Shown here piece after piece: positions 3,076 through 52,813 of a stretch of 64,000 nt of DNA. The DNA is from Patescibacteria group bacterium. GTDB taxonomy: Bacteria; Patescibacteriota; Patescibacteriia; JAHJFT01. Location of the stretch: assembly GCA_028710985.1 (NCBI GenBank), contig JAQTTB010000001.1, forward strand, positions 167,397 to 231,396, given 5' to 3'. Within the stretch, counting starts at the first letter, position 1. Each line of letters begins with the position of its first letter. The position numbers were made by a program, and so were the translations under genes. The notes below the pieces were generated by a model, which worked only from the letters and a program-made list of their open reading frames with translations, was not told the origin of the DNA and ran no database searches.

Positions 3076-4995
3076 TTATATCGCTATCGTTGCGCCGGTC
3101 GGATAGGTTATGGTTGGAGAAACATTCAAAACCTGTCCCCAGCTATATCCATGGCCGAAGAATGCGGCCTCGGTCGCAAACACCCTTCTCGCGCCGTTCT
3201 CGATCAAGTACACCGCCGGACTGCCGTTATATTTAATCAGCAAACCATCCGGATGAACCAGTTCGGAAATCATTGTGCCGGAAGATAATTTATTAATTTC
3301 CGCGTCGGTAAAATTACGGATTTTATTCCACTGAAAACCGAGATGCTCAAACACATATTCATTCTTGATCGGATATTTGATGCCCTTGGCGACCACATAA
3401 ACCGCCGCCTGGCTGCCCTTTACCAAGGTGCCGCTCGGCAGATTATTGACTGTCGGATAATTAATCACGCTCGAGGTCGGATACTGCGCCAGGCTTGAAT
3501 ATTCTTTCACATCTTCCCAGCGCCAGCCCCAGGCTTCAAAAACCTGGCCGTTCAAAATCGGATATTTGTAACCGTTGCGCAAAAGATAAACCGTGGGCTT
3601 GCCGATTTCTTTCGCCAGTTCGCCGGTAAGAAAATTATTATCCATGACCGTAACCGTAGTACCGGATGATTGTGTTGACCCAGCCACATAAGAATTATCA
3701 AGTGACAGCTTAACCGCGGCATAGGAAATTTCATAATCCGAAGAGCGTGGAGCGCCGATATAGAATAAACCGGAAACGAAAATATTTTCCTCATCTTCAC
3801 TGATGGCACATTCTCTAGATATAAAATTACCTGGCAAACCTATTGAGACATTATCACCATCATCCGGATCGACTTCCACCAAAGTATTAATGGTGAAAGG
3901 TTCGTTGATTACGAGTTCGCCGTTATCATTTACATGAGCGTCACCGGAAGTGGAATACATCGTCTCCAAGATAATAAATATTCTTCCATCCGTAGGACTG
4001 ACAAAAATATCTTCGTAGGAATTATAATTCAGACTTACCGCGGCATCCACCCTTTTTAAAAGTATATTACGATAAGAGCCTGAATCAATGTCAATCACCC
4101 TCAAATAATAACTGTAAATTGTCGAACCTGTGACCATGTCTGATAAACCGCTAATATATAATGTTTGCCCGTCCGGACTCATCGCCATGTGGTAAACGCC
4201 ACCATAGTGGTGATTATCATCCGGTCTTATTTCGTGGATATTTCTGACCGCGCCGCTGCCAATATCAACCTCAATTATTTCCGCCAGATGCATGGTGTAA
4301 CGACTCGGAAAAATCCTGTCAAAATATATATATAACTTTCTGCCATTAGGGCTGATAAAAAGATCCTGGATTGAGTACGACTTATTAGCACCATCTTCTA
4401 TACCCCAATTAACATGGACTTCGCTTACCGTACCCGAAGACGCATTCACTTTATAAATTTTTGGCAGATCTGGATTGGCCATAGTATCCGTGTAATATAG
4501 CGACGCGCCATCAGGACTTAAAATTAACTTGCCCCAATCAGTAATATGTCCGTTGGGATATTTATGTATATCAATATGCAGGGCAGGATTCCAAGGCTTT
4601 AATTCACCGGTTAATGCATCAACCGCAGCCAAGCCATTCCTTGCCTCATTATTCACGCTGGTAAAACGACCGGCAAAATATAATGTGCTGCCATCCTTGC
4701 TAAGAACCGTAGAAAAAATCCGAGTGTCGCACGATTCACCCGCCGCGCATCCTTCTAAATCTATATTTAAATTTTTTGCATTCACGCCCCCATCAATCAC
4801 CGAAATATCCGAGTTGCTCACGTATAATTTTCCATTGGCTAAATAGATGTCATTAATTCCCTCGGCAAAATCCCAGCGTTGGGTGTTTGCATCCGCCTCC
4901 GGCGTCTGAACAACAAAAAACCCCAGCCCGAGGCTCAAAATTAGTAAATATATCGTGATTTTCTTAAACATAAATTGAGTATTATTCATTGGCAA
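3076..4995 (-). CDS. Secreted beta-propeller repeat protein with three C-terminal ~50 aa repeats
   Basis: N-terminal signal/TM region (MFKKITIYLLILSLGLGFFVV). Reiterated xLYxSxxD/YVTN-like propeller blades (KLYVSNSD, TLYFAGR, SLYYTD, KLYIYFD, TLYISG). Three C-terminal repeats of the form AVYxxxxGxKYPIxNxxVFExxGF.W. Confidence 0.6.
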   Translation of the reverse strand: MPMNNTQFMFKKITIYLLILSLGLGFFVVQTPEADANTQRWDFAEGINDIYLANGKLYVSNSDISVIDGGVNAKNLNIDLEGCAAGESCDTRIFSTVLSKDGSTLYFAGRFTSVNNEARNGLAAVDALTGELKPWNPALHIDIHKYPNGHITDWGKLILSPDGASLYYTDTMANPDLPKIYKVNASSGTVSEVHVNWGIEDGANKSYSIQDLFISPNGRKLYIYFDRIFPSRYTMHLAEIIEVDIGSGAVRNIHEIRPDDNHHYGGVYHMAMSPDGQTLYISGLSDMVTGSTIYSYYLRVIDIDSGSYRNILLKRVDAAVSLNYNSYEDIFVSPTDGRIFIILETMYSTSGDAHVNDNGELVINEPFTINTLVEVDPDDGDNVSIGLPGNFISRECAISEDEENIFVSGLFYIGAPRSSDYEISYAAVKLSLDNSYVAGSTQSSGTTVTVMDNNFLTGELAKEIGKPTVYLLRNGYKYPILNGQVFEAWGWRWEDVKEYSSLAQYPTSSVINYPTVNNLPSGTLVKGSQAAVYVVAKGIKYPIKNEYVFEHLGFQWNKIRNFTDAEINKLSSGTMISELVHPDGLLIKYNGSPAVYLIENGARRVFATEAAFFGHGYSWGQVLNVSPTITYPTGATIAI

Positions 4996-5049
4996 TTATA
5001 ACGTATTTAACGCTGAAGTATAACAAAAATCCGCTTTATTGTCAAGCCC

Positions 5050-5082: not shown

Positions 5083-5124
5083 CTTTCAGTAAAACGCACC
5101 TTAATTTTTGGAGGAGGAAGGGAC

Positions 5125-5730
5125 ATGGAAGAGGAAAAAATCACCATTATCGTCTGCCGCCACCCGGGACATAACGAAAGGGGCATCACGCTCGAAGGCA
5201 TCGTGAACGCCATCAAGCTCGCCCGCTACCTGGTTGATGACCGGGGATTTATGCCCGAGCGCATTGTCCACTCGGGAACGGTCCACACGCGCATGGCCGC
5301 GAGCTTCATGGGCATCTCGGTGAACATGTGCGAACTCCGGCCCGAAGAGAACCAGGGTTTCCTGACCGCACCAAAACTCGTTCTGCCCGGAGAGAATGAG
5401 CTCGAAAAGGCAAGAATCGAAAGCGAGATCGCGGCGGCCGGCGGCATGGTCAAGGCGGCGCGCGAACTCTCGGCCCGGGTCCGCCGCCAGCGCGATCACC
5501 TACAGCTCACCCTGCACGGACTCGCCATGGACATGCGCGAGCACCGCCAGAACGTCGCCTGGGTCGTCTCCCACGGCGCCTTCGCCGAACTCGCCACCAC
5601 GCGCGCCGACAAGACACCCTACCCCATCGCAAACTGCGATTCCTTGATCTACTCCATGGGTCCGGATAGGGGCGGATACGCGGTCATGGACACCGACTAC
5701 ATCCGCTTCGCGGATCTCAACCTCAAGTGA
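5125..5730 (+). CDS. GC-rich (about 62% GC) hypothetical protein, possible histidine-phosphatase (SixA/PGAM-like) fold
   Basis: ORF with strong SD. IIVCRHPGH is an RHG-like motif, and ...VVSHGAFAEL resembles the second His motif of the histidine phosphatase superfamily. Codon usage is GC3-rich, unlike its neighbours. Confidence 0.5.
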   Translation: MEEEKITIIVCRHPGHNERGITLEGIVNAIKLARYLVDDRGFMPERIVHSGTVHTRMAASFMGISVNMCELRPEENQGFLTAPKLVLPGENELEKARIESEIAAAGGMVKAARELSARVRRQRDHLQLTLHGLAMDMREHRQNVAWVVSHGAFAELATTRADKTPYPIANCDSLIYSMGPDRGGYAVMDTDYIRFADLNLK

Positions 5731-5800
5731 GCGGCCCCGGCCCCTTGGCCGCGGCGCACGAAAAAACCGACGACTCTCTGTCATCGGTTATTTTTTTTAA

Positions 5801-6319
5801 TTATTCGCCCAATTCAATTAATTTAATCGGATTATTAATAATATAATTGCGGATTCTCTCCAAATCGTCATCGCATCGGACGATATGATCATAATACGAT
5901 CTTTGCCATCGAAAATCCGTTAAACCCATTTGATGAATTAATTTTGATGATGTGGTTTTAAACGCGCCAATCAATTCGGGAATCGGTTTAATTTTTCCCG
6001 GTAGGGACAGGTCGCGACCTGTCCCTACGTCGTGGTCGCGACCTGTCCCTACGATGGGATTATTGATGATTATTATTCCATGAAAATGGTTGGGCATTAC
6101 AACGGATTGATCCAATTTGATATATAAATATTGTTCCGCTAACCACAACCATTGTTTTTTGACAATCTCGCCAAATTTATTTAATTGCATCACGCCGTCA
6201 TGAATGCAACCGAAAACATGCGAACGATCATTAACACATGTGGTAATAAAATAAAAACCGTTTTGCGAATAATCGTACTCGCTCAAACGGTTTAATTTTC
6301 TATCCTTCTCTTGCGGCAT
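5801..6319 (-). CDS. IS200-like / REP-associated tyrosine transposase (RAYT) with an in-frame REP palindrome insertion
   Basis: Start taken at MPQEKDRK (Met 43 of the track ORF 5801..6445, which otherwise overlaps the upstream gene). HuH motif MPNHFHGIIII. Catalytic-Tyr region RSYYDHIV...YIINNPIK. Between these motifs the palindrome GTAGGGACAGGTCGCGACCTGTCCCTAC (plus a partial second copy) encodes GTGRDHDVGTGRD. Confidence 0.7.
   Translation of the reverse strand: MPQEKDRKLNRLSEYDYSQNGFYFITTCVNDRSHVFGCIHDGVMQLNKFGEIVKKQWLWLAEQYLYIKLDQSVVMPNHFHGIIIINNPIVGTGRDHDVGTGRDLSLPGKIKPIPELIGAFKTTSSKLIHQMGLTDFRWQRSYYDHIVRCDDDLERIRNYIINNPIKLIELGE
6001..6052. repeat. REP-like palindrome GTAGGGACAGGTCGCGACCTGTCCCTAC (1.8 copies, tandem) inside the RAYT ORF
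   Basis: Perfect 28 bp palindrome at 6001..6028, followed by GTCGTGGTCGCGACCTGTCCCTAC. A near-identical copy is at 38011..38038. Confidence 0.8.
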
Positions 6320-27944: not shown

Positions 27945-28649
27945 ATGAAAACCGGATTTATATTAATTGATAAACCCGCGGGCTGGACGTCGCATGATGT
28001 GGTCGCTCATCTGCGCCGCGTCACCGGCGAGAGGAAAATCGGCCATGCCGGCACGCTTGATCCGTTTGCCACCGGCCTTTTGATTTTGGGAATCGGCCGT
28101 CCCGCAACGCGGCAACTCGGCGAATTTTTAAAAATGGATAAAAAATATGAGGCCATCGCGCGCCTCGGCGCCCGCTCCGACACTCATGACAAAACCGGCG
28201 CAATCACCAAAAAGAAAATTTCAAAAAAACCGAGTCTTGCCGCAGTTAAAAAAGCGCTATTAAAATTCCGCGGCGAGCAGGAGCAGATTCCGCCCATGTT
28301 CTCGGCGAAAAAAATTCACGGCCAAAAATTGTATAACCTCGCCCGCGCCGGAAAAGAAATCGCGCGCGAACCGAACAAAATTATTATTCACCAAATCCGG
28401 CTTAAAAAATACGCCTGGCCGGCTCTCGCCTTTTCGGTCTCCTGCTCGAGCGGAACCTACATCCGTTCGCTCGCGCATGACCTCGGCACCGCCCTCGGCA
28501 CGGGCGCGTATCTTACCGCCCTCCGGCGGACCGAAATCGGCCGCATCCCCGTTTTACGGGCCGTAAACCTCGAAAAAATAAACCGCGAAAATTGGGAAAA
28601 ATACCTCAAAAATCGCCTGCCCCTTGCCAAGCTCCGGAATGTGTGCTAG
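27945..28649 (+). CDS. truB: tRNA pseudouridine(55) synthase
   Basis: Start taken at MKTGFILIDKPAGWTSHDVV. GHAGTLDPFATGLLILGIG is the TruB catalytic Asp motif. The track ORF starts earlier, inside the palindromic repeat. Confidence 0.9.
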   Translation: MKTGFILIDKPAGWTSHDVVAHLRRVTGERKIGHAGTLDPFATGLLILGIGRPATRQLGEFLKMDKKYEAIARLGARSDTHDKTGAITKKKISKKPSLAAVKKALLKFRGEQEQIPPMFSAKKIHGQKLYNLARAGKEIAREPNKIIIHQIRLKKYAWPALAFSVSCSSGTYIRSLAHDLGTALGTGAYLTALRRTEIGRIPVLRAVNLEKINRENWEKYLKNRLPLAKLRNVC

Positions 28650-28876
28650 TATGGAATTACATTAATTAATAATCATTTCGGAAGATTAAGGCAGTCGATT
28701 GTTAAAAAATTTCCATCCAAACTTGAGCTTGTTTTAACATGAATTTCAATTTCTCATCCCGTTTAAAAACCGGGCAAAGACAACTCACGCAAGATATAGC
28801 GCAGTCCGCTCGAGCGAACTAATTTTTGGAAAATTTTTTAACATTGCCTGAAATCTCTCCGATTAGAGAGATTTTT

Positions 28877-30406
28877 ATGTATTCAACTTATATACTTCTT
28901 ATCGCCGCCGGCTCCCTCATCGGCCTGGTTGTCGGCTATACGATCCGCCACTTTATCATTAAAACACAGATCGATACCGCCGCGGGCCGGGCCGAAAAAC
29001 TTATCGCTGACGCGCGCGTCAAGCAGCAGGAGCTCATGCTTTCTGCCAAAGAAAAGGCCATTCATATTATTGACGAGGCCAAGCACGAGGAAGAAGAGCG
29101 CCGCCGCGAGTTCACCCACCTTCAACAGCGTCTGGAACAACGCGAGTCTTTGTTTGACCAAAAACTGCTTGAATTCCAGGAGAAACAGCAAAAATTGTAC
29201 GAAAAAATCACCCGCGTCGAGCAGGTCAAGGAAGAGGTCCGTAAAATCCGCGAAGACGCCATTGCCAAGCTTCAGGAAATCAGCGGGCTCACCCGCGAAC
29301 AGGCGGAAAAACGCCTGCTTGAGGCGACCGAAGCCGAACTCAAGGAAGAAATCGCCGCGCGCATCCGCAAAATGGAAAATCAGGGCGATGAAGAAATTGA
29401 AAAGAAATCACGCGAACTCATTTCCCTCGCCATCCAGCGCTGCGCCGCTTCGCAGGCCCAGGAGACAACCACCACGAACGTGGAGCTTCCGAACGACGAA
29501 ATGAAGGGGCGCATTATCGGCAAAGAAGGCCGCAACATCAAAACAATTGAACAGCTTACCGGCACCGAAATCCTGATTGACGACACGCCGGGCATGATTA
29601 TGATTTCCGGATTCTCTCCGATCCGCCGCCAGCTTGCGAGAATCGCGCTTCAGCGCCTCATCAAGGACGGCCGCATCCACCCGGGCCGCATCGAAGAACA
29701 GGTGGAAGAAGCCAAAAAAGAACTTGCCGTGAGCATGAAGAAATCCGGTGAAGAATCTCTTTACGAGACCGGCGTTTCCATTGCCGAAATTGATCCCAAG
29801 CTTGTCCAGATACTCGGCCGCTTGAAATTCCGTACTTCTTACGGACAGAACGTGCTTCAGCACTCGGTTGAAGTCGCGAATCTTTCCACCCTGATCGCCC
29901 AGGAACTCGGCGCCAATGTCAAAATCTGCCGCATCGGCGGACTCTTCCACGATATCGGCAAAGCGGTTGACCATGATATCCAGGGTTCGCATCCGGAAAT
30001 CGGCTACAATATCATGAAAAAATTCAACTTCCCCGAAGAGATCGCGCGAATTTGCATTGAACACCATGAAGACCGGCCGACGACTGTTGAAGGCGCCATC
30101 TGCAAATCCGCGGACGCCATCTCCGGCGCGCGGCCCGGCGCCCGCAAAGACACGCTCGAGCAGTACATTCAGCGCCTTGGCGACCTGGAGAAAACCGCCA
30201 CCGGTTTTGCCGGCGTTGAAAAGGCTTATGCCATTCAGGCCGGCCGCGAAATCCGCGTCTTTGTTACGCCGACCCAGATTGACGATTCGGCCGCAACCAA
30301 GCTTGCCCATGATATTGCCAAAAAAATCGAGGAAGAATTGCGCTATCCCGGTGAAATCAAGGTTACGGTTATCCGGGAAACCCGCGTGATTGAATACGCC
30401 CGATAA
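28877..30406 (+). CDS. rny: Ribonuclease Y
   Basis: N-terminal TM helix, coiled-coil, KH domain (GRIIGKEGRNIK) and HD domain (HSVEVA...LFHDIGKA). Start taken at MYSTYILL. Confidence 0.92.
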   Translation: MYSTYILLIAAGSLIGLVVGYTIRHFIIKTQIDTAAGRAEKLIADARVKQQELMLSAKEKAIHIIDEAKHEEEERRREFTHLQQRLEQRESLFDQKLLEFQEKQQKLYEKITRVEQVKEEVRKIREDAIAKLQEISGLTREQAEKRLLEATEAELKEEIAARIRKMENQGDEEIEKKSRELISLAIQRCAASQAQETTTTNVELPNDEMKGRIIGKEGRNIKTIEQLTGTEILIDDTPGMIMISGFSPIRRQLARIALQRLIKDGRIHPGRIEEQVEEAKKELAVSMKKSGEESLYETGVSIAEIDPKLVQILGRLKFRTSYGQNVLQHSVEVANLSTLIAQELGANVKICRIGGLFHDIGKAVDHDIQGSHPEIGYNIMKKFNFPEEIARICIEHHEDRPTTVEGAICKSADAISGARPGARKDTLEQYIQRLGDLEKTATGFAGVEKAYAIQAGREIRVFVTPTQIDDSAATKLAHDIAKKIEEELRYPGEIKVTVIRETRVIEYAR

Positions 30407-30424
30407 AATGTAAGGGTTGCATAT

Positions 30425-31249
30425 ATGCGACCCGTCCAATATATGACCCTCAAGTTCATCTTCTTCGGCGACGTGGTCGGCAAAATCGGCCGCCGCGCCC
30501 TCGCCCAAATCGTTCCCAAATGGCGTAAAAAATACGCGCCTCATTTGGTTTGCGCCAATGCCGAGAATCTGGCCCACGGCAAAGGCTTTACGCCCTCGAC
30601 CATGCGCGAGGCCATGGCTGCGGGAATTGATTTTTTCACCGGCGGCAATCATATCTTTGATAATAAAGCCGGCTTAAAAATATTCGATGATCCCGAACTC
30701 TCCCGCCTCGTTGTCCGGCCGTTAAATTATCCGACCAGTGTTCCGGGCGAAGGCTGCCGCCTCATTGAAGTTGAGCGCCATCCGGTGCTCATCGCAAGCC
30801 TCAACGGCCAGGTCGGTTTCCGCGAAAGCTTTGACTCTCCGTTTCTCGCGCTTGATAAAATGGTCCACAGGCACATTAAGCAGAACCCCGCGATTATTGT
30901 GGACTTCCATTCCGAAACGACTTCCGAAAAAGTCGCTTTCGGCCTTTACTCCGACGGCCGCGTTTCGGCCGTGCTCGGCACCCATACCCATATACCAACC
31001 GCCGATGCCAAAGTCCTGCCCCAGGGCACGGGTTACATCTCCGATATCGGCATGGTCGGCGAAGAAAACTCGGTCATCGGAGTAAAACAAAACGTGATTC
31101 TCAACAATTTTATTACCCAAATCCCGCAAATGCACGAATTTGCCGAAACCGGCCGGTGCGAAGTGAACGCGGTTTATTTTGAGATTGATTCAAAATCCCA
31201 CCAATGCCTGAAAATCAAGCTCCTGCAAACCGTGGTTGACGTAAAATAA
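30425..31249 (+). CDS. YmdB-like metallophosphoesterase (TIGR00282 family)
   Basis: FIFFGDVVGKIGRRAL...CANAENLAHGKG..GGNHIFD...TH are calcineurin-like motifs arranged as in B. subtilis YmdB. It lies immediately downstream of rny, as in Firmicutes. Confidence 0.8.
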   Translation: MRPVQYMTLKFIFFGDVVGKIGRRALAQIVPKWRKKYAPHLVCANAENLAHGKGFTPSTMREAMAAGIDFFTGGNHIFDNKAGLKIFDDPELSRLVVRPLNYPTSVPGEGCRLIEVERHPVLIASLNGQVGFRESFDSPFLALDKMVHRHIKQNPAIIVDFHSETTSEKVAFGLYSDGRVSAVLGTHTHIPTADAKVLPQGTGYISDIGMVGEENSVIGVKQNVILNNFITQIPQMHEFAETGRCEVNAVYFEIDSKSHQCLKIKLLQTVVDVK

Positions 31250-31318
31250 GCCCTATTGCGGATATCCTGAAAAATGTGCTATACTTAGGCTAATAATTAA
31301 TAATTATCCCCACTCAAT

Positions 31319-31603
31319 ATGAATAAGGCAGAACTTATCAACCAAATCTCCGACCGCGTTGGCGTTACCAAAAAGCAGGCCGAAGACATGATTGAGGCGT
31401 ATACCGATATCACCACAAAAACCCTTAAAGCGGGCGGTGAAGTCACGATCGCCGGATTCGGCACTTTCAGCGCCAAGACCCGCGCCGGCCGCATCGGCGT
31501 GAATCCCCAGAGGCCGACTGAAAAAATCCAGATTCCGCCGGTTACGGTTCCAAAATTCAAGGCCGGCAAAGCCCTGAAGGACGCGCTCAAGGGTAAGGCG
31601 TAA
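31319..31603 (+). CDS. hup: DNA-binding protein HU
   Basis: MNKAELINQISDRVGVTKKQAEDMIEA...GFGTFSAKTRAGRIGVNPQ.PTEKIQIP is the HU/IHF signature. 94 aa. Confidence 0.92.
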   Translation: MNKAELINQISDRVGVTKKQAEDMIEAYTDITTKTLKAGGEVTIAGFGTFSAKTRAGRIGVNPQRPTEKIQIPPVTVPKFKAGKALKDALKGKA

Positions 31604-31655
31604 TTTACAAAATCAAAAAATTCACCCGCATCCATGGGTGAATTTTTATTTTTAA

Positions 31656-32927
31656 TTATTCCTTGGCCCAGTTCTCGATTTCTTCAAACACTCCGCCCAG
31701 GCTCACCATGCGGACTTCGGATTCCTGCCGAAATTTCCACTCCGCGGCATTGTCCTTCATGGTCCGGTCGGAAATCACGATGCGAAGCGGCGCGCCGATG
31801 AGATCCGCATCCCCGAGTTTCTCCCCGGCCGACACTCCCTCCCGGTCGTCCCAAAGCGCATCAATGCCCGCCGCGGCGAGCTGATCGGAAAGATTCGCCG
31901 CCGCGGAAGCAATCTCCGTGCTCGTATCCTCGTCTTTCGCGAAAAGTGAAACAATGTGCACGAGATACGGCGCGATTGATTTCGGCCAGATGATGCCGCG
32001 CTCGTCGCTCAAGACCTCAACCACCGACCCCATGACGCGGGACGGACCGATGCCGAAACATCCCATTATTACATCATTTTTCTTTCCGTCTGCCGCCGTG
32101 TAGCTAAGCTTCATGTCGTGGCTGTAGCGCGTCCCGAGTTTAAAAATGTTGCCCACTTCGATTGAACGCTTTTCCGCCACCGCGGCGCCGCAGGACGGAC
32201 ACTTGCCGCCGTCTTTCACCTCGGCGATTTCCTTATTCTGGCTCCACCCGCAGGAAGCGCAATGGAATATGGTATCTTCGCCGTTCGGAGTCACGACCTG
32301 AAACTCATGGGAATATTCGTTCGTGAATTCTCCGCCCGAGGCTTGGGTCACAATCGCTTCAAGCCCGCAGCGCGTAAAAATCTTTTTGTACGCTTCGGTT
32401 GCCTTGGCGTAAAAATCATTCAAATCCTGCTCGTCGCAATGAAAACTGTACAAATCCTTCATGGAAAACTCGCGGCCGCGGAGCAGGCCGGATTTGGCGC
32501 GCGGCTCGTTTCTGAATTTGTCCTGTATCTGATAAAGATAGAACGGCAAATCCTTGTATGAATTGACATGCCGCCGCGCGATATCGACGATCGGCTCTTC
32601 GTGCGTTGTCGCGAGCCCCAGCTCCTTGTCGCGGGACTTGAACTGAAACATTATTTCCTTAAGCTTTTCCCAGCGGCCGGTTTCGCTCCAGAGCTCTTTT
32701 GACTGCAGGGCCGGCATCAGCATCTCCTGGCCGCCGATTGCGTTCATTTCTTGCCGCACGATATTTTTTATTTTATTCAAAACGCGGAGGCCCAGGGGCA
32801 GGTACGCGTAAACCCCGGCCATCATCTGTTCAATAAACCCGGCCTGGGAAAGCAGTTTCGCGTTGACTGATTCCGCGTCATGCGGCGCGGTTTTTCTGGT
32901 TTTTCCGAAAAGTTGAGAATACTTCAT
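31656..32927 (-). CDS. proS: Prolyl-tRNA synthetase (short form lacking the editing domain)
   Basis: Class II aaRS motifs and a ProRS-like core (…FRNEPRAKSGLLRGREF…). 423 aa with a C-terminal anticodon-binding domain. Confidence 0.85.
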   Translation of the reverse strand: MKYSQLFGKTRKTAPHDAESVNAKLLSQAGFIEQMMAGVYAYLPLGLRVLNKIKNIVRQEMNAIGGQEMLMPALQSKELWSETGRWEKLKEIMFQFKSRDKELGLATTHEEPIVDIARRHVNSYKDLPFYLYQIQDKFRNEPRAKSGLLRGREFSMKDLYSFHCDEQDLNDFYAKATEAYKKIFTRCGLEAIVTQASGGEFTNEYSHEFQVVTPNGEDTIFHCASCGWSQNKEIAEVKDGGKCPSCGAAVAEKRSIEVGNIFKLGTRYSHDMKLSYTAADGKKNDVIMGCFGIGPSRVMGSVVEVLSDERGIIWPKSIAPYLVHIVSLFAKDEDTSTEIASAAANLSDQLAAAGIDALWDDREGVSAGEKLGDADLIGAPLRIVISDRTMKDNAAEWKFRQESEVRMVSLGGVFEEIENWAKE

Positions 32928-33027
32928 ATTATGAAAATAATATCAAAAAAACGGCCAAATGGCAATTCTGGATGAAAAGAAATCCCGTGTTCACGAGAAC
33001 ACGGGACAGTTAAGTTGTGGGAAGCGT

Positions 33028-33264
33028 CTACTTCCTCTTTTTGAAGCACCTCCTATTCCCCTTGCGCCTTATGAGCTCTTTGCGTTCGTAAGAGTCCAGA
33101 CAGTCCCAGCAGCGATCGCTGCCCTCGGCTACTGGCTCTTTGCATCCGTAGACGCAAAGACCGTCGTCATCCTCCATGAGCTCCGGCAAGCTGATTCCCG
33201 ACGCGATCACGCGACCAGCCGCCACTCCCTGGAGGAATCTCTCCTCATCTTCGCTCTGTCTCAC
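33028..33264 (-). CDS. GC-rich Cys-rich small protein (78 aa)
   Basis: CVYGCKEPVAEGSDRCWDCL gives a 4-Cys cluster with a basic C-terminus. ~62% GC. Confidence 0.4.
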   Translation of the reverse strand: MRQSEDEERFLQGVAAGRVIASGISLPELMEDDDGLCVYGCKEPVAEGSDRCWDCLDSYERKELIRRKGNRRCFKKRK

Positions 33265-33274
33265 TCCACCCTCC

Positions 33275-33577
33275 TCACTGTGTTCTGGCTCCCCTCAGCT
33301 TCTTGAACTGATGCGGCCAGCAACGTTTGCTGCCATTGAAAGTCGACAGGACCGTACCGCATCCCGGAAAATCGCATCGGCGACCGGGAGGAAACGTCTT
33401 CTGCGTTCCGCCGATCGTTGACGCGAGTCCGCGCGTACCTCGCCGCACTGCCGTTGCGTACCGTGCAACCACCGAGTCCTCTCCTCTCATGCCACCTCCC
33501 TGACCCGTCGCTCGCGAGTGACGGGTCGCTGACCCCAAAAAAACGGGGCGCTGTGTTTTATAAGGCAATTCTAGCAT
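33275..33577 (-). CDS. GC-rich Cys-rich small protein with a CPxCG-type zinc-ribbon-like motif (100 aa)
   Basis: RCDFPGCGTVLSTFNGSKRCWPHQF fits C-x4-C ... C-x2-H, suggesting a zinc-binding element. ~63% GC. Confidence 0.4.
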   Translation of the reverse strand: MLELPYKTQRPVFLGSATRHSRATGQGGGMRGEDSVVARYATAVRRGTRGLASTIGGTQKTFPPGRRCDFPGCGTVLSTFNGSKRCWPHQFKKLRGARTQ

Positions 33578-33685
33578 AAATTACGATTTTGTCAAGTAGG
33601 GGCGACTCGCGAGTCGCCCCTACTTGACGATTAATAAATATTTCTCTACAATAAGCTTAAATTTTAGTCTCGTCCGCTTTGCCTT

Positions 33686-33759
33686 GCGCCCATAGCTCAG
33701 TTTGGTAGAGCAGTTGCCTCTTAAGCAAACGGTCGTGGGTTCAAATCCCTCTGGGCGCA
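33686..33759 (+). tRNA. tRNA-Lys (anticodon CTT)
   Basis: GCGCCCA-TA-GCTC-AGTTTGGTA-GAGC-A-GTTGC-CTCTTAA-GCAAA-CGGTC-GTGGG-TTCAAAT-CCCTC-TGGGCGC-A. The acceptor and D/T loops are canonical. There is one mismatch each in the anticodon stem and the T stem. Confidence 0.6.
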
Positions 33760-33827
33760 GAGCAAAGCCGGACGGAAAAAAACAAAGAGGCATGTGCAAT
33801 CGACTGATAAATTATTAAATACAGCCT

Positions 33828-35540
33828 ATGGCAAATATAAGCATCGATGTAAGAAAAAAAACGATACAAGAACTTATCGACGACGAAATTCCGTCAGGCA
33901 GATATTGGTTACCATCTTTTCAGCGACAATATGTTTGGGATGCAGACAATGTCAAGGAGTTGCTCGATTCTATTGTACGTAATTATCCGATAGGAGCAAC
34001 CATACTTTGGAAGCCATCGCCAGAAGTTGCTTCCGACATTGATCCAACGTCCGTCCCGTTGGTTGATAGTGCACCCTCAAATACTACAGATAGGTATTTC
34101 GTTATTGACGGACAGCAACGCACTACCTCTCTGCTTCTTCTTTTCAACGACTGGGCAGTAGTGCGCGGCGGCGAGAGAATAACATGCGACCCCATCGCAT
34201 ACGACCCCACGTCCGATAAATTTATTAAGCACCGAAATAGGGGCATCGATTGCTCAAAAATTGTAAAGGCATTCTGCCGTCATGATGTTGAAACACTCAC
34301 TGAGTTAAATAATAACTATAACGCAGACGACTTCAACAAAATACGCGCAATAGCACAAAAAATCCTAGAGTATCCAATACCTCAATATGTTATGGAAACT
34401 TCAGGAGAAGCAACGGAAAGAGAAGATATATTTTCTCGAATGGCAGAGGCATTTGTGCGCATTAATAAAGAAGGTCTGAGAATAGGGAATGTCGAACTTA
34501 TGCTTTCTTTCTTGGCCGGAACGTTAAGCGGTGAGTTAAAAACACGAGTTGTACAACTATACCAAGAGTATGAAAAACGTGATGCATTTATACAACCTAT
34601 CATCCGCTCCGTATTCTCTAATTTTGGACTCTCACAAACGCAATTAGCGAAACCGAAACAATTTAAAGCCAATATTGAACGAATTAGAGAAATCTCTACC
34701 GACGATATAGCTAGGCGACTCAATACGAGCAGTAGAGCGCTTCAGCTTACTTTCAATTTCATTGAAAAAGAATTTGGTATGAGAAGTGCGCGTCTGATTC
34801 CTTCTCAAACAACTTTAATTCCGCTAGCGACATATTTTTCAAAAGTAAGTTTTGAGAAACTCGAGGAAATGCCCGCAGAAGATCGCGAGCGCATGACTTC
34901 TTGGTTTATGCTGGCAAATCTGAATGGACATTATAGCTCCAGCGTGGACACACGGTTGAGCCGTGATATCAAGATGATTCAAGATATGAGTAGCTTCCCC
35001 TTTCTTGAAATGCAAACCGCTATGAAAGTAAGAAAACACATCAATCTCGAATGGATTCAGGATGGGTTAGAAAGAAGTGCATTACGAGAAGCAAACAAAG
35101 CATTTGTTTTTTTGCTTTATGTTCTACTTATTAAAAATAATGCTGACGATTGGGATACGCGCTTAATCGCTTCACGCGATCTGAAAGAGTTAGAGCGACA
35201 TCACATTTTTCCAAAAGAATATTTAAGACAAGAACTAGAGCTCGATGATGTCGAGGACCCCGCAGAGGCGGAAATTGAGGTAAGCAACCTCGCGAACATT
35301 ACCTTTATTTTAAAAGAAAAAAACTCTACAATCGGTGATACGCCACCTAAGGATTACCTGCCACAGCTCATAGATCGAGCAAAATTACATTTTATCCCCG
35401 AAGACGAGAATCTATGGACCAAAGAAGCGTATGATAGTGGTCTATTCCAAAATGCACGCCTTCAAATTATCTTTGAAGCCGCGCTGAAACATTTTCCTGA
35501 CGTTTTCAAGATAGAATTATGTGATAAAGAAACCCAGTAA
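33828..35540 (+). CDS. GmrSD-like type IV restriction endonuclease (DUF262 ParB-like NTPase domain + DUF1524 HNH-like nuclease domain)
   Basis: The N-terminus YWLPSFQRQYVWD is the DUF262 DGQQR-type motif; VIDGQQRTTSL is also present. The C-terminus HHIFPKEYL is a DUF1524 His-Me finger motif. 570 aa, AT-rich, directly 3' of a tRNA. Confidence 0.8.
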   Translation: MANISIDVRKKTIQELIDDEIPSGRYWLPSFQRQYVWDADNVKELLDSIVRNYPIGATILWKPSPEVASDIDPTSVPLVDSAPSNTTDRYFVIDGQQRTTSLLLLFNDWAVVRGGERITCDPIAYDPTSDKFIKHRNRGIDCSKIVKAFCRHDVETLTELNNNYNADDFNKIRAIAQKILEYPIPQYVMETSGEATEREDIFSRMAEAFVRINKEGLRIGNVELMLSFLAGTLSGELKTRVVQLYQEYEKRDAFIQPIIRSVFSNFGLSQTQLAKPKQFKANIERIREISTDDIARRLNTSSRALQLTFNFIEKEFGMRSARLIPSQTTLIPLATYFSKVSFEKLEEMPAEDRERMTSWFMLANLNGHYSSSVDTRLSRDIKMIQDMSSFPFLEMQTAMKVRKHINLEWIQDGLERSALREANKAFVFLLYVLLIKNNADDWDTRLIASRDLKELERHHIFPKEYLRQELELDDVEDPAEAEIEVSNLANITFILKEKNSTIGDTPPKDYLPQLIDRAKLHFIPEDENLWTKEAYDSGLFQNARLQIIFEAALKHFPDVFKIELCDKETQ

Positions 35541-35556
35541 ACAAAGCGAGTATCCT

Positions 35557-35865
35557 ATGAAAATCACACTCATCATTCTAATCATTATTTCTCTTCTCCT
35601 CGCCGCGACAATCGGCGGCGGCCTGATTTATTATCAAAATCAAATCAACGGGCTTAATGGTCAGATTGCCGAACAGCAAATCCGGCTCACGAATCTCGGA
35701 ACCCAGGTACTAGAAAAAGAGCAGGCCATCAGCGATCTCGGCTTGGCCGCCAATTCGTCAACCGAACAAATTGCCGAGCTCCAAACTCAAATTGAAGAAT
35801 TGAATAAAAAAATTCAAGAACTGGAAAAAGCCAAGCAAGAACTCGAACAGCAAAAAACGCGTTAA
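35557..35865 (+). CDS. Small membrane-anchored coiled-coil protein
   Basis: MKITLIILIIISLLLAATIGG is a TM helix, followed by heptad-rich segments (LQTQIEELNKKIQELEKAKQELEQ). Start moved to an internal ATG that does not overlap the GmrSD stop. Confidence 0.55.
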   Translation: MKITLIILIIISLLLAATIGGGLIYYQNQINGLNGQIAEQQIRLTNLGTQVLEKEQAISDLGLAANSSTEQIAELQTQIEELNKKIQELEKAKQELEQQKTR

Positions 35866-48326: not shown

Positions 48327-48370
48327 TGAGATACAAAAAATCACCCTTACGGATGATTTTTTGATAATCC

Positions 48371-48484
48371 CGGCAATGACCTACTTTTCCGGACGCTAGG
48401 CGTCCAGTAACATCGGCGCTGGAGGGCTTAACTACCGTGTTCGATATGGGAACGGGTGTGGCCCCTCCGCGAAAATCACCAGGG
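48371..48484 (-). rRNA. rrf: 5S ribosomal RNA
   Basis: The reverse complement CCTGGTGATTTTCGCGGAGGGGCCACACCCGTTCCCATATCGAACACGGTAGTTAAGCCCTCCAGCGCCGATGTTACTGG... matches the 5S helix I/loop B/loop C consensus. Ends are approximate (+/-5 nt). Confidence 0.85.
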
Positions 48485-48620
48485 TTGAGATATGGATTAA
48501 GCATCCATAATTCAACCCAAGCGACTTTATAATTTTTCACGCGGGTATTTAAAGCCGATGATTTTCAATGTGCCGACCCTTTCGATATGCCTGTCCGCCG
48601 AAGCGAAGCGTAGGCGGAGG

Positions 48621-48654
48621 AACGGGTGTGGCCCCTCCGCGAAAATCACCAGGA
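48621..48654 (-). repeat. Duplicated 5S rRNA 5' fragment (34 nt identical to 48450..48483) in the 23S-5S spacer
   Basis: gaacgggtgtggcccctccgcgaaaatcaccagg occurs twice: once as the real 5S 5' end, and once in the spacer, followed by unrelated AT-rich sequence. Confidence 0.8.
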
Positions 48655-49011
48655 TAAATAAGTAAAATAAATTTACTTATCCGCCTGACGACTTTAACAA
48701 TGACGAATAAACTCACTAAAAAGCTTGAATGGTTGTAGAAATTGACCGATTAGTATTCCTCGGCTCAATCCCTTACGGGACTTACACCTGGAACCTATCA
48801 ACCTCCTCATCTCGAAGGAGTCTATAATGAAATCTAATCTTAGGGACAGCTTCGCGCTTATATGCTTTCAGCGCTTATCCAAACCGAACGTAGCTACCCA
48901 GCGATGCCCTTGGTAGGACAGCTGGTACACTAGAGGTTCGTTCACCTCGGTCCTCTCGTACTAGAGGCGAGACCCTTCAAATTTCGACGCCCATGGTGGA
49001 TAGGAGACCGA

Positions 49012-49780
49012 CATTCTGTTACTTTGCCAAACCACATCCGTTTTCAACCGGTGCTCTGTGGTGATTCCGACTTTCGTCGGAACTCTGCATGTCGCCATGC
49101 AGTTCGGACTATATCTTATCCCGATATATTTCGGAATTTCGGCATATAGTCTCTGAGGATTTCAAGGAATCTAATACAATTTTCTTATTAATTTTTCGGT
49201 ATTTACCGGCGCAATTCATACTGTAAGCAAAGCAAATAATTCTTTTAGCGCCATCAATGGTTGAGTGATCTGCATTCTCCATCATATCCACTATGCGCTT
49301 AAAAATTACCATTGCGTCATGTTTCTTTGAAATTAAAGGATACTTCTCGAAAAATGGAATTATCGTCTTTCTTAAGTCATTCCTATTTCTAACCACATAC
49401 ACCAGCGTATCATCTTTTTTATTTCGAGCGTGATTATTTTTGATATAGCCACAACCGAAATAATTTTTAATCGCTTCCAGAGTTTCTTTACGCAAATAAC
49501 TCTGATTTATGTGGAATTCAGGAATGAATTTAAGACCTGTTTTCATTTTTGCGTCTTTATAAATCGCAATATGAAAAGTTCCTTCGCCTTCAACGAAACC
49601 GGTAATATACCATGGATTTAGATTCTTCGATCTTTCCTGCTGATTATCTGCACTCATCACTTTTTTACTTTAATATATATATTATATCAAAGTAGTGTGA
49701 GATTCACAAGCCTCACTCCTTTTTGAGGCTCTCCAGACTTTCCAGCATTTAGCCGAATTTATAGACAGCACGATCTTCAT
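49012..49780 (-). mobile_element. Group I intron in 23S rRNA at the I-CreI-type site (E. coli ~2593, after GAGACAGT)
   Basis: The 23S exon sequence GAACGTCGTGAGACAGT | TCGGTCTCCTATCCACCATGGGCG is split by 769 nt that contain a LAGLIDADG ORF. Confidence 0.8.
49109..49660 (-). CDS. LAGLIDADG homing endonuclease (single-motif, I-CreI-like)
   Basis: WYITGFVEGEGTF is a LAGLIDADG motif near the N-terminus. 183 aa, AT-rich, encoded entirely within the 23S intron. Confidence 0.8.
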   Translation of the reverse strand: MMSADNQQERSKNLNPWYITGFVEGEGTFHIAIYKDAKMKTGLKFIPEFHINQSYLRKETLEAIKNYFGCGYIKNNHARNKKDDTLVYVVRNRNDLRKTIIPFFEKYPLISKKHDAMVIFKRIVDMMENADHSTIDGAKRIICFAYSMNCAGKYRKINKKIVLDSLKSSETICRNSEIYRDKI

Positions 49781-49824
<44 letters not shown>

Positions 49825-49837
49825 TGGCGAACAGCCA

Positions 49838-49893
<56 letters not shown>

Positions 49894-50002
49894 TCTCCGT
49901 CGTCGATATGGACTCTTGGACGGAATCAGCCTGTTATCCCCGGAGTAGCTTTTATCCGTTGAGCTCCCGCCGTCCTACTTCGAACGGTCGGATCACTAAC
50001 TT

Positions 50003-50034
<32 letters not shown>

Positions 50035-50382
50035 GCAGTAAAGCCGACTTATGCGTTTGCACTTTCAGCCCGATTTCCATCCGGGCCAAGTCGACCTTTG
50101 TAAACGCCTCCGTTACTTTTTAGGAGGCAACCGCCCCAGTTAAACTACCCACCAGTTACTGTCTCCCAAACCGGATTCACGGTTCGAGATTAGAATACAC
50201 ACAACACAAGGGTGGTATCTCACTGTTGTCCCGAAGGACTCCCACCTATTCTGAACATGCGGAGCATGTATCCAATAACAAGTTATAGTAAAGCTTCACG
50301 GGGTCTTTTCGTCCAGCCATGGGTAAATCGCATCTTCACGACTCTTGTAATTTCACCGAGTCCCTCGTTGAGACAGTCCCCC

Positions 50383-50413
<31 letters not shown>

Positions 50414-50415
50414 CG

Positions 50416-50461
<46 letters not shown>

Positions 50462-51267
50462 GCGTTCATCCGCGCTTAAGATCAAGGCTTTTCCCGAAGG
50501 ATAACCTCTCCCCTTAACGTTCGGACACTGGCCAGGCATCAGCCCCTATACATCACCTTACGGTTTAGCAGGGACCTGTGTTTTTGGTAAACAGTCGCTA
50601 GGAATACTTTAGCTGCGCCCCAACACGAGGTTGGGGAGGCTTTATCCCGAAGTTACAGCCGCTTATTTGCAGAGTTCCTAAACGAGGGTTCTCTCGTACG
50701 CCTTGGCACACTTATGCCCACCCACCTGTGTCGGTTTACAGTACGGATACCTAAAAGTTTAATGCTAGAGGCTTTTCTTGGCTCCACGTCTTCTCATATT
50801 GGCCGGTATTACCAGCCTTTAGATCGCCTGCGGCCTGATGGCCCGCGGATTTACCTGCGGACCGGCGCGCAAACGCCCTACGCATATAACCAAAATACGC
50901 TAGAGATTTCGGGAAGCGTCCCCCCATCGCGCTCTTAGGTAGTGCAGGAATATTAACCTGCTCATCCATCGGTTACGCCTTTCGGCCTCACCTTAGGACC
51001 GACTAACCCTGGGACGAAGGTCGTTGCCCAGGAAACCTTGGGTTTACGGCGGAGAGGATTCTCACCTCTCTTTTTGTTACTAATGCCAACATTCTCTCTT
51101 CTCATCGCTCCACCGAACCTCACAGTTCGACTTCAACGCAATGAGAACGCTCCTCTACCACTCGCTCCGATAAATCGGAACGAATTCTCGTCTTCGGTAC
51201 TAAGTTTTAGCCCCGAAATATTTTCGGCGCAAAGCAACTTGACCAGTGAGCTGTTACGCTATCTTTA

Positions 51268-51305
<38 letters not shown>

Positions 51306-52813
51306 AGTCGCTCCACAGCCTTTCACACTTAACCTAGATTTTGGGACCTTAGACGGAGATCTGGGCTTTTTCCCTTTCGACTAATGGAGCTTAGCCCCCA
51401 CAGTCTGACTGCCAGGAACACTTTACGGTATTCGGAGTTTGGTTAGGAGGAGTAGATTTCTCCCTCCGTCCCATTCAGTGCTCTACCCCCGTAAAGCTAT
51501 TAACTGACGCTAGCCCTAAAGCTATCTCGAGGAGAACCAGCTATTACCGAGTTCGATTGGAATTTCTCCGCTATCCACAACTCATCCCCGCGTGTTGCAC
51601 GGCGCGTGAGTTCGGGCCTCCATTCCGCCTTCGCGGAACTTCACCCTGGTCATGGATAGGTCACCCGGTTTCGGGTCTTGCATGCGCTACCATAGACGCC
51701 CGTTAAGGCTCGCTTTCACTATGGCTCCGCCCCCGCAGGGGCTTAACCGGCAACGCATGACAAACTCGTTGGCTCATTCTTCAATAGGAATGCCGTCACC
51801 CCGACTTGCGTCGGGGCTCCGACTTTTTGTAAGCACACGGTTTCAGATACTGTTTCATCTCCCTTCCGGGATGCTTTTCAACTTTCCCTCGCGGTACTTG
51901 TTCACTATCGATCACAAGAAGTATTTAGTCTTGCCACATAGTCGTGGCTGATTCCCACAGGATTTCACGAGTCCCGTGGTACTCTAGGTTGAATGCTATA
52001 AATAGAGATCCCCTTTCGCGTACAGGGCTATCACCTTCTTTGGCTCCGCTTTCCAGCGGATTCTACTAGGGAAGATCGCTTTATTTACCAAGGCTTGCAA
52101 GCGCCTTGAACGCAAACACCCGCAACCCCCCGCAGACATATGGTCTTGCAACCTTAGGCGCAAACTCTATTTCACCCGAAGGTGTCACTTTGTTCACGCT
52201 TGGTCTGCGAGGTTTGGACTGATCCCTTTTCGCTCGCCACTACTCAGGGAATGGGCTGACCGATAAGTATCCGGCTCGCAAGATACGAGCCAAATACTTA
52301 AGGCCAGCATTGTTTTCTGTTCCTCTGGCTACTGAGATGTTTCACTTCGCCAGGTTGCCTTCTTGCACCTATGTATTCAGTGCAAAATATCCCATTCTTC
52401 CAATGGGATGGGTTTCCCCATTCGGATATCCCCGGGTCAAAGGTTGCTTGCCACCTAACCGAGGCTTTTCGCAGGCTGCTACGTCCTTCATCGTCTTCTT
52501 ATGTCGAGTCATCCTCCGTGCGCTCTTCGTGCTTCTACAACCATTTAAACTTTTTAGTTCAAATGGCACGTACAAGATTTTAATGATGCTATTTACTCGT
52601 CATTATTAAATTGTCAATGTTCACTTGGCCTTGTGGCCAAACCCTGTTCGTCTGGTCGCAAGTGAGTCAAAAAACCGCCCGGTCGTGTCCAAGCGGTGCG
52701 AAAACAAGCATTAAAACTGCGTCAACTGATTGGACACGTATTTGATTGGCTTGAAACTCTCATATTTTAGCGAAAAAATGCTCTTTTTATGATAATTATT
52801 TTAAACTGCCCAT

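Follow-up and report, generated by a model that had tools for sequence, protein, structure and literature searches.

A predicted pair of small Cys-rich genes between proS and tRNA-Lys of a Patescibacteria genome includes a member of an unnamed zinc-ribbon family

The window analysed here is a stretch of 64,000 nucleotides from a Patescibacteria (Parcubacteria-like) genome with a mean GC content of 48.6% (GenBank assembly GCA_028710985.1, contig JAQTTB010000001.1, positions 167,397 to 231,396 of the forward strand; all coordinates below count from the first letter of the window). Our subject is a GC-rich block of about 600 nucleotides between proS and a tRNA-Lys gene, which holds two short open reading frames (ORFs) on the minus strand, here called ORF A and ORF B. 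An original prediction, made from the letters of the DNA, had pointed out two ORFs of 78 and 100 aa and a cysteine motif in each. Both ORFs are indeed there, at 33028..33264 (78 aa with a GTG start) and, in the 100-aa reading, at 33275..33577, and so are the motifs: ORF A has CVYGCK...CWDCL and ORF B has CDFPGCG...CWPH. The features of the block are, in the order of transcription:

33591..33628, no strand: perfect palindrome of 38 nt (19+19, no spacer), the longest perfect palindrome in the window and a candidate operator
33568..33595, minus strand: predicted sigma-70-type promoter of the block, with a -35 box TTGACA (33595-33590), a 16-nt spacer and a TG-extended -10 box TAGAAT (33573-33568)
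33502..33527, minus strand: hairpin in the predicted 5' untranslated region (5' UTR), an imperfect 26-nt palindrome GACCCGUC...GACGGGUC, just upstream of the ORF B Shine-Dalgarno (SD) sequence
33499-33495, minus strand: putative SD of ORF B, GGAGG, 4 nt before the ATG at 33490
33275..33490, minus strand: ORF B, 71 aa plus stop, ATG at 33490, pI 11.5
33305..33400, minus strand: zinc-ribbon core of ORF B, residues 31-62, KTFPPGRRCDFPGCGTVLSTFNGSKRCWPHQF, with predicted ligands C39, C44, C57 and H60
33274-33270, minus strand: putative SD of ORF A, GGAGG, directly after the TGA of ORF B (33277-33275) and 5 nt before the GTG at 33264
33028..33264, minus strand: ORF A, 78 aa plus stop, GTG start, 10 nt past ORF B and in a different frame
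32982..33007, minus strand: intrinsic-terminator-like hairpin, 11 pairs and a U-rich tail, about 20 nt past the ORF A stop
32937..32965, minus strand: separate predicted promoter of proS, TTGCCA, 17 nt, TG-TATTAT

The predicted block promoter agrees with the consensus at 11 of 12 positions and carries the TG extension in addition. Transcription would start near 33561, leaving about 70 nt of 5' UTR in which two hairpins can form; the second of them (33527-33502) directly borders on the SD of ORF B. At the other end, the block has its own predicted terminator and proS has a separate predicted promoter in between, and for this reason we do not regard the block as a leader of proS. The 100-aa reading of ORF B was rejected: its ATG at 33577 falls between the -35 and the -10 box. 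Most likely, ORF B has 71 aa and starts at the SD-preceded ATG at 33490.

Word-indexed searches with ORF B return no match, its own sequence included, and an exact look-up of the 100-aa reading has no match either. Protein collections lack ORF B because public gene calls annotate the ORF on the opposite strand. On the Logan contigs that carry this locus, the called gene is a 115-aa plus-strand shadow ORF at 32959-33306 and the minus-strand ORFs are uncalled; in a word-indexed protein search, the 115-aa ORF is a singleton cluster without relatives. With phmmer, the comparison of ORF B to 1.84 billion representatives identified 45 proteins at E<=1e-3, mostly 58-140 aa long and 33-62% identical to ORF B over residues 25-65. 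The 32-residue core of these relatives aligns without gaps, with the consensus xTYPxGRxCxxPGCxTxLSxYNxxxxCWxH (ligands C-x4-C-x12-C-x2-H): across 42 relatives, R37, C39, C44, L48 and C57 are invariant and G43, T46, S49, Y51, N52 and H60 are nearly invariant. ORF B keeps every conserved residue of this core, W58 included, with the one exception of Y51, which is Phe, as it is in the relatives P0012 and P0026. A family profile made from 162 distinct cores, ORF B excluded, scores ORF B at 61.2 bits (E 3.6e-18 in 1494 six-frame segments of the window) and the next-best segment of the window at 7.7 bits. The core of ORF B is followed by 11 residues after H60, against a family median of 14, and the tail FKKLRGAR fits the pattern F..[YFL]RG.R, which occurs in its strict form in 23 of 94 distinct tails and in a loose form in 54 of them.

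The original prediction of a zinc ribbon in ORF B had been made dependent on conservation of the Cys spacing, and this spacing is strictly conserved in the homologues. An AlphaFold2 model, made with the family alignment, has a pLDDT of 91-95 at residues 31-60 and a disordered N-terminus. By its sequence, ORF B is thus a clear member of an unnamed zinc-ribbon family and, as judged from the same alignments, a genuine small zinc-ribbon protein, and it is predicted to fold as a ribbon and to bind zinc. Its sequence matches nothing in Pfam, PHROGs (E<=1, PHROG 10853 included), NCBIfam or PADLOC. Searches with the structure model found no match in the PDB and only uncharacterised phage proteins in BFVD; the best structural neighbour is A0A6J5QM62, an uncharacterised protein of Caudovirales, with a Foldseek probability of 1.00 and 36% identity over 39 residues, at an E-value of only 0.08.

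The family consists of proteins of about 60-90 aa with a disordered N-terminus, a zinc ribbon of about 30 residues and a short, basic tail of the aromatic/RGxR type; the short motif shared by the family is GRxCxxxGCxTxLSxYNxxxxCWxH. ORF B resembles the other members in its ungapped core, its small size, its disordered N-terminus and its aromatic/RGxR basic tail, and differs in the Phe at the position of the nearly invariant Tyr51, in the shorter tail and in being paired with an orphan Cys-rich ORF, a pairing not seen beside the relatives examined. The family has no match in Pfam, NCBIfam or the PDB. PHROG 10853, a phage group with unassigned function, is matched weakly by 28 of 43 relatives (best E 2.4e-4). 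Members that have a database name are listed as 'hypothetical protein' of metagenome-assembled genomes (MAGs) of Actinomycetota, for example MEX1046240.1, and full-text literature searches found no description of the family, although an earlier one may exist.

Isolate phage and plasmid collections gave no meaningful matches. Loci in IMG/VR and in metagenomes were located with a degenerate DNA pattern for the core, stricter for the metagenomes. The core is present on 28 viral contigs of IMG/VR, with GC contents from 0.36 to 0.70, and occurs there alone, fused to endonuclease VII-/Lar-like zinc ribbons or fused to helix-turn-helix domains. At least 120 metagenome loci carry the core; among the matches listed, their median GC is 0.69, in contrast to the 48.6% of the host of ORF B, and a single locus lies below 0.55; its contig is phage-like and has an SNF2 helicase gene as well.

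The genes next to the family members repeatedly belong to sigma-factor systems. Among the matches listed, no Pfam family adjoins the metagenome copies more often than ECF sigma factors, with 11 of 114 immediate neighbours. In 22 loci a local profile search places a sigma gene immediately ahead of the family gene and in its orientation; this holds for 19 of the 72 loci with at least 1.2 kb of upstream DNA, which show the order sigH, ZAS gene, family gene. The sigma genes that were tested against the NCBIfam model SigH_actino (TIGR02947) scored 261-273 bits, with a cutoff of 251.55, and most loci examined have an RshA-like ZAS gene with the HxxxCxxC motif after the sigma gene and before the family gene. 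This trio of sigH, rshA and family gene is found in soil Actinomycetota (metagenome loci L048, L061, L062, L064, L097-L099, L105, L108, L124, L125 and others); its third gene encodes 61-70 aa with the tail FPNYRGKRL. Other members stand directly after pairs of STAS and HATPase_c_2 genes, which are RsbV/RsbW-like (L163:4001-4222, L164:2797-3018 and L011:5001-5207), and this adjacency independently ties the family to the regulation of sigma factors a second time. One member adjoins a sigma gene in an integrase/ParB element and one is fused to an HTH_23 domain within a phage head module. Together, the fusions and the gene neighbourhoods suggest a role in the transcription machinery. This link is an association seen in parts of the family and reaches ORF B only through its kinship.

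Three known systems invite comparison. The first is the sigH-rshA clade itself (an ECF12 sigma factor with its ZAS protein, in soil Actinomycetota), which has the same core and a comparable tail (FPNYRGKRL, FKKLRGAR in ORF B); ORF B is not closely related to this clade and the window has neither a sigma nor an anti-sigma gene. ZAS anti-sigma factors such as RsrA and RshA, and RbpA of Streptomyces, are small proteins that hold zinc via Cys and His residues and are encoded in or beside sigma-factor loci. The family may work like these small zinc-containing regulators of sigma factors or RNA polymerase. ORF A and ORF B differ from them in lacking the HxxxCxxC motif, in the absence of any Pfam match (zf-HC2, RbpA) and in the spacing of the ligands. 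ORF B as an actual ZAS anti-sigma factor or RbpA was ruled out, with no motif and no profile match. Lastly, phage 'morons' are single genes with their own promoter and terminator; the block is like them in its strong predicted promoter, its terminator, the unrelated host genes around it and the phage-associated family to which ORF B belongs, and unlike them in having no prophage, integrase or att repeat nearby and a host-like GC content at third codon positions.

ORF A is the less certain half of the pair. The protein is acidic in its N-terminal half (pI 4.1) and both basic and rich in Cys (C37, C41, C52, C55 and C73) in its C-terminal half. It has no match in Pfam, PHROGs, NCBIfam or PADLOC, none, its own sequence included, in a word-indexed search of 5.8 billion proteins (the exhaustive phmmer search covered ORF B only), none in IMG/VR, JGI metagenomes or PDB sequences and only two chance-level matches (E 6-8) in isolate phages. 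No homologue of ORF A lies among the neighbours of more than 140 family loci, BLASTP gives no alignment between ORF A and ORF B, and no similarity exists to the phage relatives with two ribbons. The original prediction had asked for conservation of both ORFs, and for ORF A this is where it fails: a homologue was found nowhere among the collections searched.

It could accordingly be asked whether ORF B is the only gene of the block, with ORF A being a long 3' UTR or the decayed, frameshift-split end of a longer multi-ribbon protein. In addition to the lack of homologues, the single-sequence structure model of ORF A is unusable (pLDDT 43), the ORF begins 10 nt past ORF B in another frame, and some relatives of ORF B (P0022, L015, L021 and L037) do have extra C-x2-C ribbons after the core; in an hhalign alignment of ORF A to the family, C37, C41, C52 and C55 even stand in register with the ligands, at a probability of only 3%. 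However, ORF A has a GGAGG of its own at the correct distance from its start codon, its frame scores best of all six and has a codon-position GC that is host-like and resembles that of proS, the terminator follows the stop of ORF A and not the stop of ORF B, and ORF A does not resemble the additional ribbons that the long relatives carry. We consider a single-gene block unlikely, and ORF A is probably a lineage-specific gene that is translated.

The base composition of the block is less unusual than first thought. About 62% GC had been claimed for it, against about 48% in the flanks. The block is indeed GC-rich, but the contrast was overstated: the stretch 33028-33577 has 58.5% GC and the stretch 32960-33600 has 56.3%, peaks of 200 bp reach 61%, and the flanks are unequal, with 54.5% in proS and 43.1% in the 900 bp to the right. 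Compared to all 550-bp windows, the block has a z of 1.67; 2.7% of these windows are equally or more GC-rich, and eight other stretches of the window reach at least 59% GC. GC at codon positions 1/2/3 is 0.58/0.44/0.69 in ORF A and 0.56/0.63/0.61 in ORF B, compared to 0.57/0.39/0.68 in proS and a mean of 0.55/0.39/0.56 in 29 long genes of the window. The third-position GC of both ORFs is host-like, and the excess of ORF B at position 2 (0.63) is caused by its Arg/Gly/Pro-rich protein. Composition thus gives no sign that the block is a recent foreign arrival, and the idea that it is the remnant of a foreign high-GC element is not supported: the predicted cassette of promoter, SD sequences and terminator is intact and its third codon positions look native.

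The genes around the block are, from left to right, RNase Y, a YmdB-like phosphoesterase and HU, all on the plus strand, proS on the minus strand, the block, tRNA-Lys, a GmrSD/HEC-05-type gene and ruvB. The three that matter here are:

31656..32927, minus strand: proS, a class II aminoacyl-tRNA synthetase gene (Pfam tRNA-synt_2b and HGTP_anticodon), relatives 59-61% identical
33685..33760, plus strand: tRNA-Lys(CTT), divergent from the block, reaching the Rfam gathering score; predicted promoter at 33624..33652
33828..35540, plus strand: GmrSD/HEC-05-type gene, 40.7% GC, about 250 bp from the block

Neither paralogues of ORF A or ORF B nor DNA repeats of the block were found elsewhere in the 64-kb window, and there are no att-like repeats around tRNA-Lys and no integrase or prophage nearby. 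The closest proS genes found (59-61% identical) are from Parcubacteria/Patescibacteria MAGs and from one MAG labelled Gammaproteobacteria. None of the three closest species identified has the block at its proS locus. In these relatives the order is RseP, a conserved protein of about 100 aa, proS, and these neighbours are not present in the window. The conserved protein between rseP and proS (HYPRFHLY...HLDQK, no Pfam match) is encoded in L004, L005 and L006, at about 5650-5970 or 4723-5022. L006 has, in addition, a GIY-YIG endonuclease gene (5105-5407) and a Cys-rich ORF of 91 aa (5721-5996) upstream of proS (L006:5105-5996), with nothing at this insertion site in the two other Patescibacteria relatives. 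This suggests that the region just upstream of proS is a recurrent insertion spot.

Taken together, we favour with moderate confidence a reading in which the block is a self-contained bicistronic operon on the minus strand, encoding two small Cys-rich proteins, of which ORF B would be a transcription regulator, and was probably gained horizontally a long time ago. The strong promoter at 33595-33568 would produce a transcript of about 580 nt, on which ORF B (71 aa) would be translated from its SD-preceded ATG and ORF A (78 aa) by coupling to ORF B; the coupling is proposed because the SD of ORF A directly follows the ORF B stop. The hairpin terminator would then stop the transcript before proS. 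ORF B would bind one Zn2+ via C39, C44, C57 and H60 and act as a small transcription regulator that binds either nucleic acid or RNA polymerase/sigma factor, as its charge, the fusions and the neighbourhoods of its relatives suggest, and ORF A would be its lineage-specific partner. The original prediction had offered regulatory or anti-defence modules as alternatives, and of the two the regulatory one is the most plausible, with a basic protein, relatives beside sigma regulators and fusions to helix-turn-helix domains. The distribution of the family suggests that the gene was acquired from a phage or another mobile element, as a cassette of promoter plus terminator, and that the third codon positions have come to look native since this old transfer. 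An old horizontal origin from a family centred on high-GC Actinomycetota and phages is plausible, and the argument for it comes mainly from the family distribution, because the synteny of the relatives is lost on both sides.

Several points weigh against this reading. All signals of the operon, promoter, SD sequences and terminator, are predictions from consensus matches, and the mechanism is not anchored by any solved structure or named family in the comparisons to PDB, Pfam and NCBIfam. The sigH-linked members rank 55th or lower among 156 relatives of ORF B, an ECF-based profile finds no sigma-like gene in the window, and ORF B does not reach PHROG 10853 at E<=1. The frame of ORF B is unremarkable in host codon usage. 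ORF A is without a homologue, ORFs of such a length are common in GC-rich DNA and both strands are open here. Finally, with synteny lost on both sides of proS, the absence of the block from the relatives says little on the date of the gain.

The palindromes at the start of the block could be part of its regulation. The ends of the 38-nt palindrome carry the -35 boxes of two divergent promoters, one for the block and one for tRNA-Lys, and, being upstream of both predicted starts, the palindrome would terminate neither transcript. It shares the core CTCGCGAG with the 26-nt palindrome of the 5' UTR; this 8-mer has four copies in the window, compared to 1.25 expected, and two of them are the ones here, 95 bp apart. 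A 22-nt core of the palindrome is absent from IMG/VR. It is an attractive idea that the two palindromes are an operator pair for a dimeric regulator. A bolder version of the favoured reading can be built on this: the whole family would be unrecognised sigma or RNA polymerase factors, kept in Actinomycetota as the third gene of sigH-rshA loci and next to partner-switching modules and spread by phages, and ORF B with ORF A a captured module that regulates itself and tRNA-Lys via the CTCGCGAG palindromes. We regard this version as speculative and doubtful. If it is true, the presence of ORF B also records that genes passed from Actinomycetota, or from phages of these bacteria, to an episymbiotic lineage.

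The proximity of the GmrSD-type gene raises the question of whether the pair could be an anti-defence or anti-restriction module, tied to this gene or to phage counter-defence. The GmrSD gene with its low GC of 40.7% and a small coiled-coil ORF fill the space between the 3' side of tRNA-Lys and ruvB (33828-35865); the two ORFs at a tRNA gene look like a small defence islet, and the GmrSD gene is the truly deviant stretch of the neighbourhood. The gene lies only 250 bp from the block, family members occur in phage genomes, and anti-restriction proteins are known among the small phage proteins with zinc ribbons. One long relative, P0022, has a match to a 'Lar-like restriction alleviation' PHROG. 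This match is solely via the extra C-terminal domain of P0022, outside the common core, and neither ORF of the block matches PADLOC or the anti-restriction PHROGs. No relatives were found in defence islands; most are chromosomal genes of Actinomycetota beside housekeeping or sigma-regulatory genes. The GmrSD gene itself is on the other strand, beyond the tRNA gene, and has 40.7% GC compared to 58.5% of the block. The anti-defence half of the original prediction has thus found no support and we judge such a function improbable.

More remote is the possibility that we are dealing with a structured non-coding RNA or with a long leader of proS, the ORFs being incidental. The position right before an aminoacyl-tRNA synthetase gene that is read from the same strand would suit such a leader, the GC skew of -0.22 on the plus strand makes the transcribed strand G-rich, and the predicted 583-nt RNA folds better than shuffled sequences (z = -3.6). 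This folding signal comes largely from the terminator and the 5' hairpins, and the block is set apart from proS by a predicted terminator and by a promoter of proS itself. Homologous regions, in which base pairs could be seen to covary, were not found. Rfam 15 was searched with gathering thresholds on the whole window and with E<=10 on 32800-33850: it has no match to the block at E<=10, T-box included, and within 32800-33850 only tRNA-Lys reaches the gathering score, with all others at E>=0.005 and far below threshold. A score of 61 bits to a protein family with all metal ligands kept is not expected of non-coding sequence, and for the ORF B part an RNA gene is largely refuted; for the block as a whole we consider it very improbable.

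Three Logan contigs (SRR22315506/08/09) carry proS with identical gene coordinates, and the one that was aligned, L001, is 100% identical to the window over 28036-33624. All three end inside the 38-nt palindrome (33624), and the contigs from the GmrSD side end inside tRNA-Lys at about 33706, so that the junction of about 80 nt at 33624-33706 is outside independent contig coverage. The original prediction had asked for an assembly check: the aligned contig confirms the join of the block to proS, and the junction of the block to tRNA-Lys lies outside the coverage. That the block is an assembly chimera or a contaminant from a high-GC organism, as the overwhelmingly high-GC origin of the family and the uncovered junction could suggest, can practically be dismissed, given that L001 is 100% identical to the window over 5.6 kb that take in the block, proS, HU, YmdB and RNase Y, that a perfect palindrome and a tRNA gene are typical break points of assembly graphs, and that third-position GC, promoter and AT-rich spacers all look native.

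Some features of the window stand apart from the block. The 23S and 5S rRNA genes are at 48368-52539 on the minus strand and there is no 16S rRNA gene anywhere in the 64 kb; the 23S gene has several insertions compared to the bacterial model. Nearly all 1-kb bins have a negative GC skew, with a C-rich plus strand, irrespective of the strand of the genes, and this uniformity suggests that the whole window is on one replichore.

ORF B adds a new member to a family that is not itself new, although unnamed and uncharacterised, and the block is a real and fairly ordinary pair of small genes, as far as its letters can tell; the direct importance of this one pair is modest. It illustrates that public gene calls on the wrong strand can keep a clearly conserved small protein out of the databases, and the presence of the family in a Patescibacteria lineage with a reduced genome adds a small data point on gene flow into this radiation via mobile elements. 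The family itself is abundant, strictly conserved and uncharacterised, and its recurrence beside sigH-rshA and STAS/RsbW-type modules makes it a testable candidate for a new transcription-associated factor of Actinomycetota and their phages.

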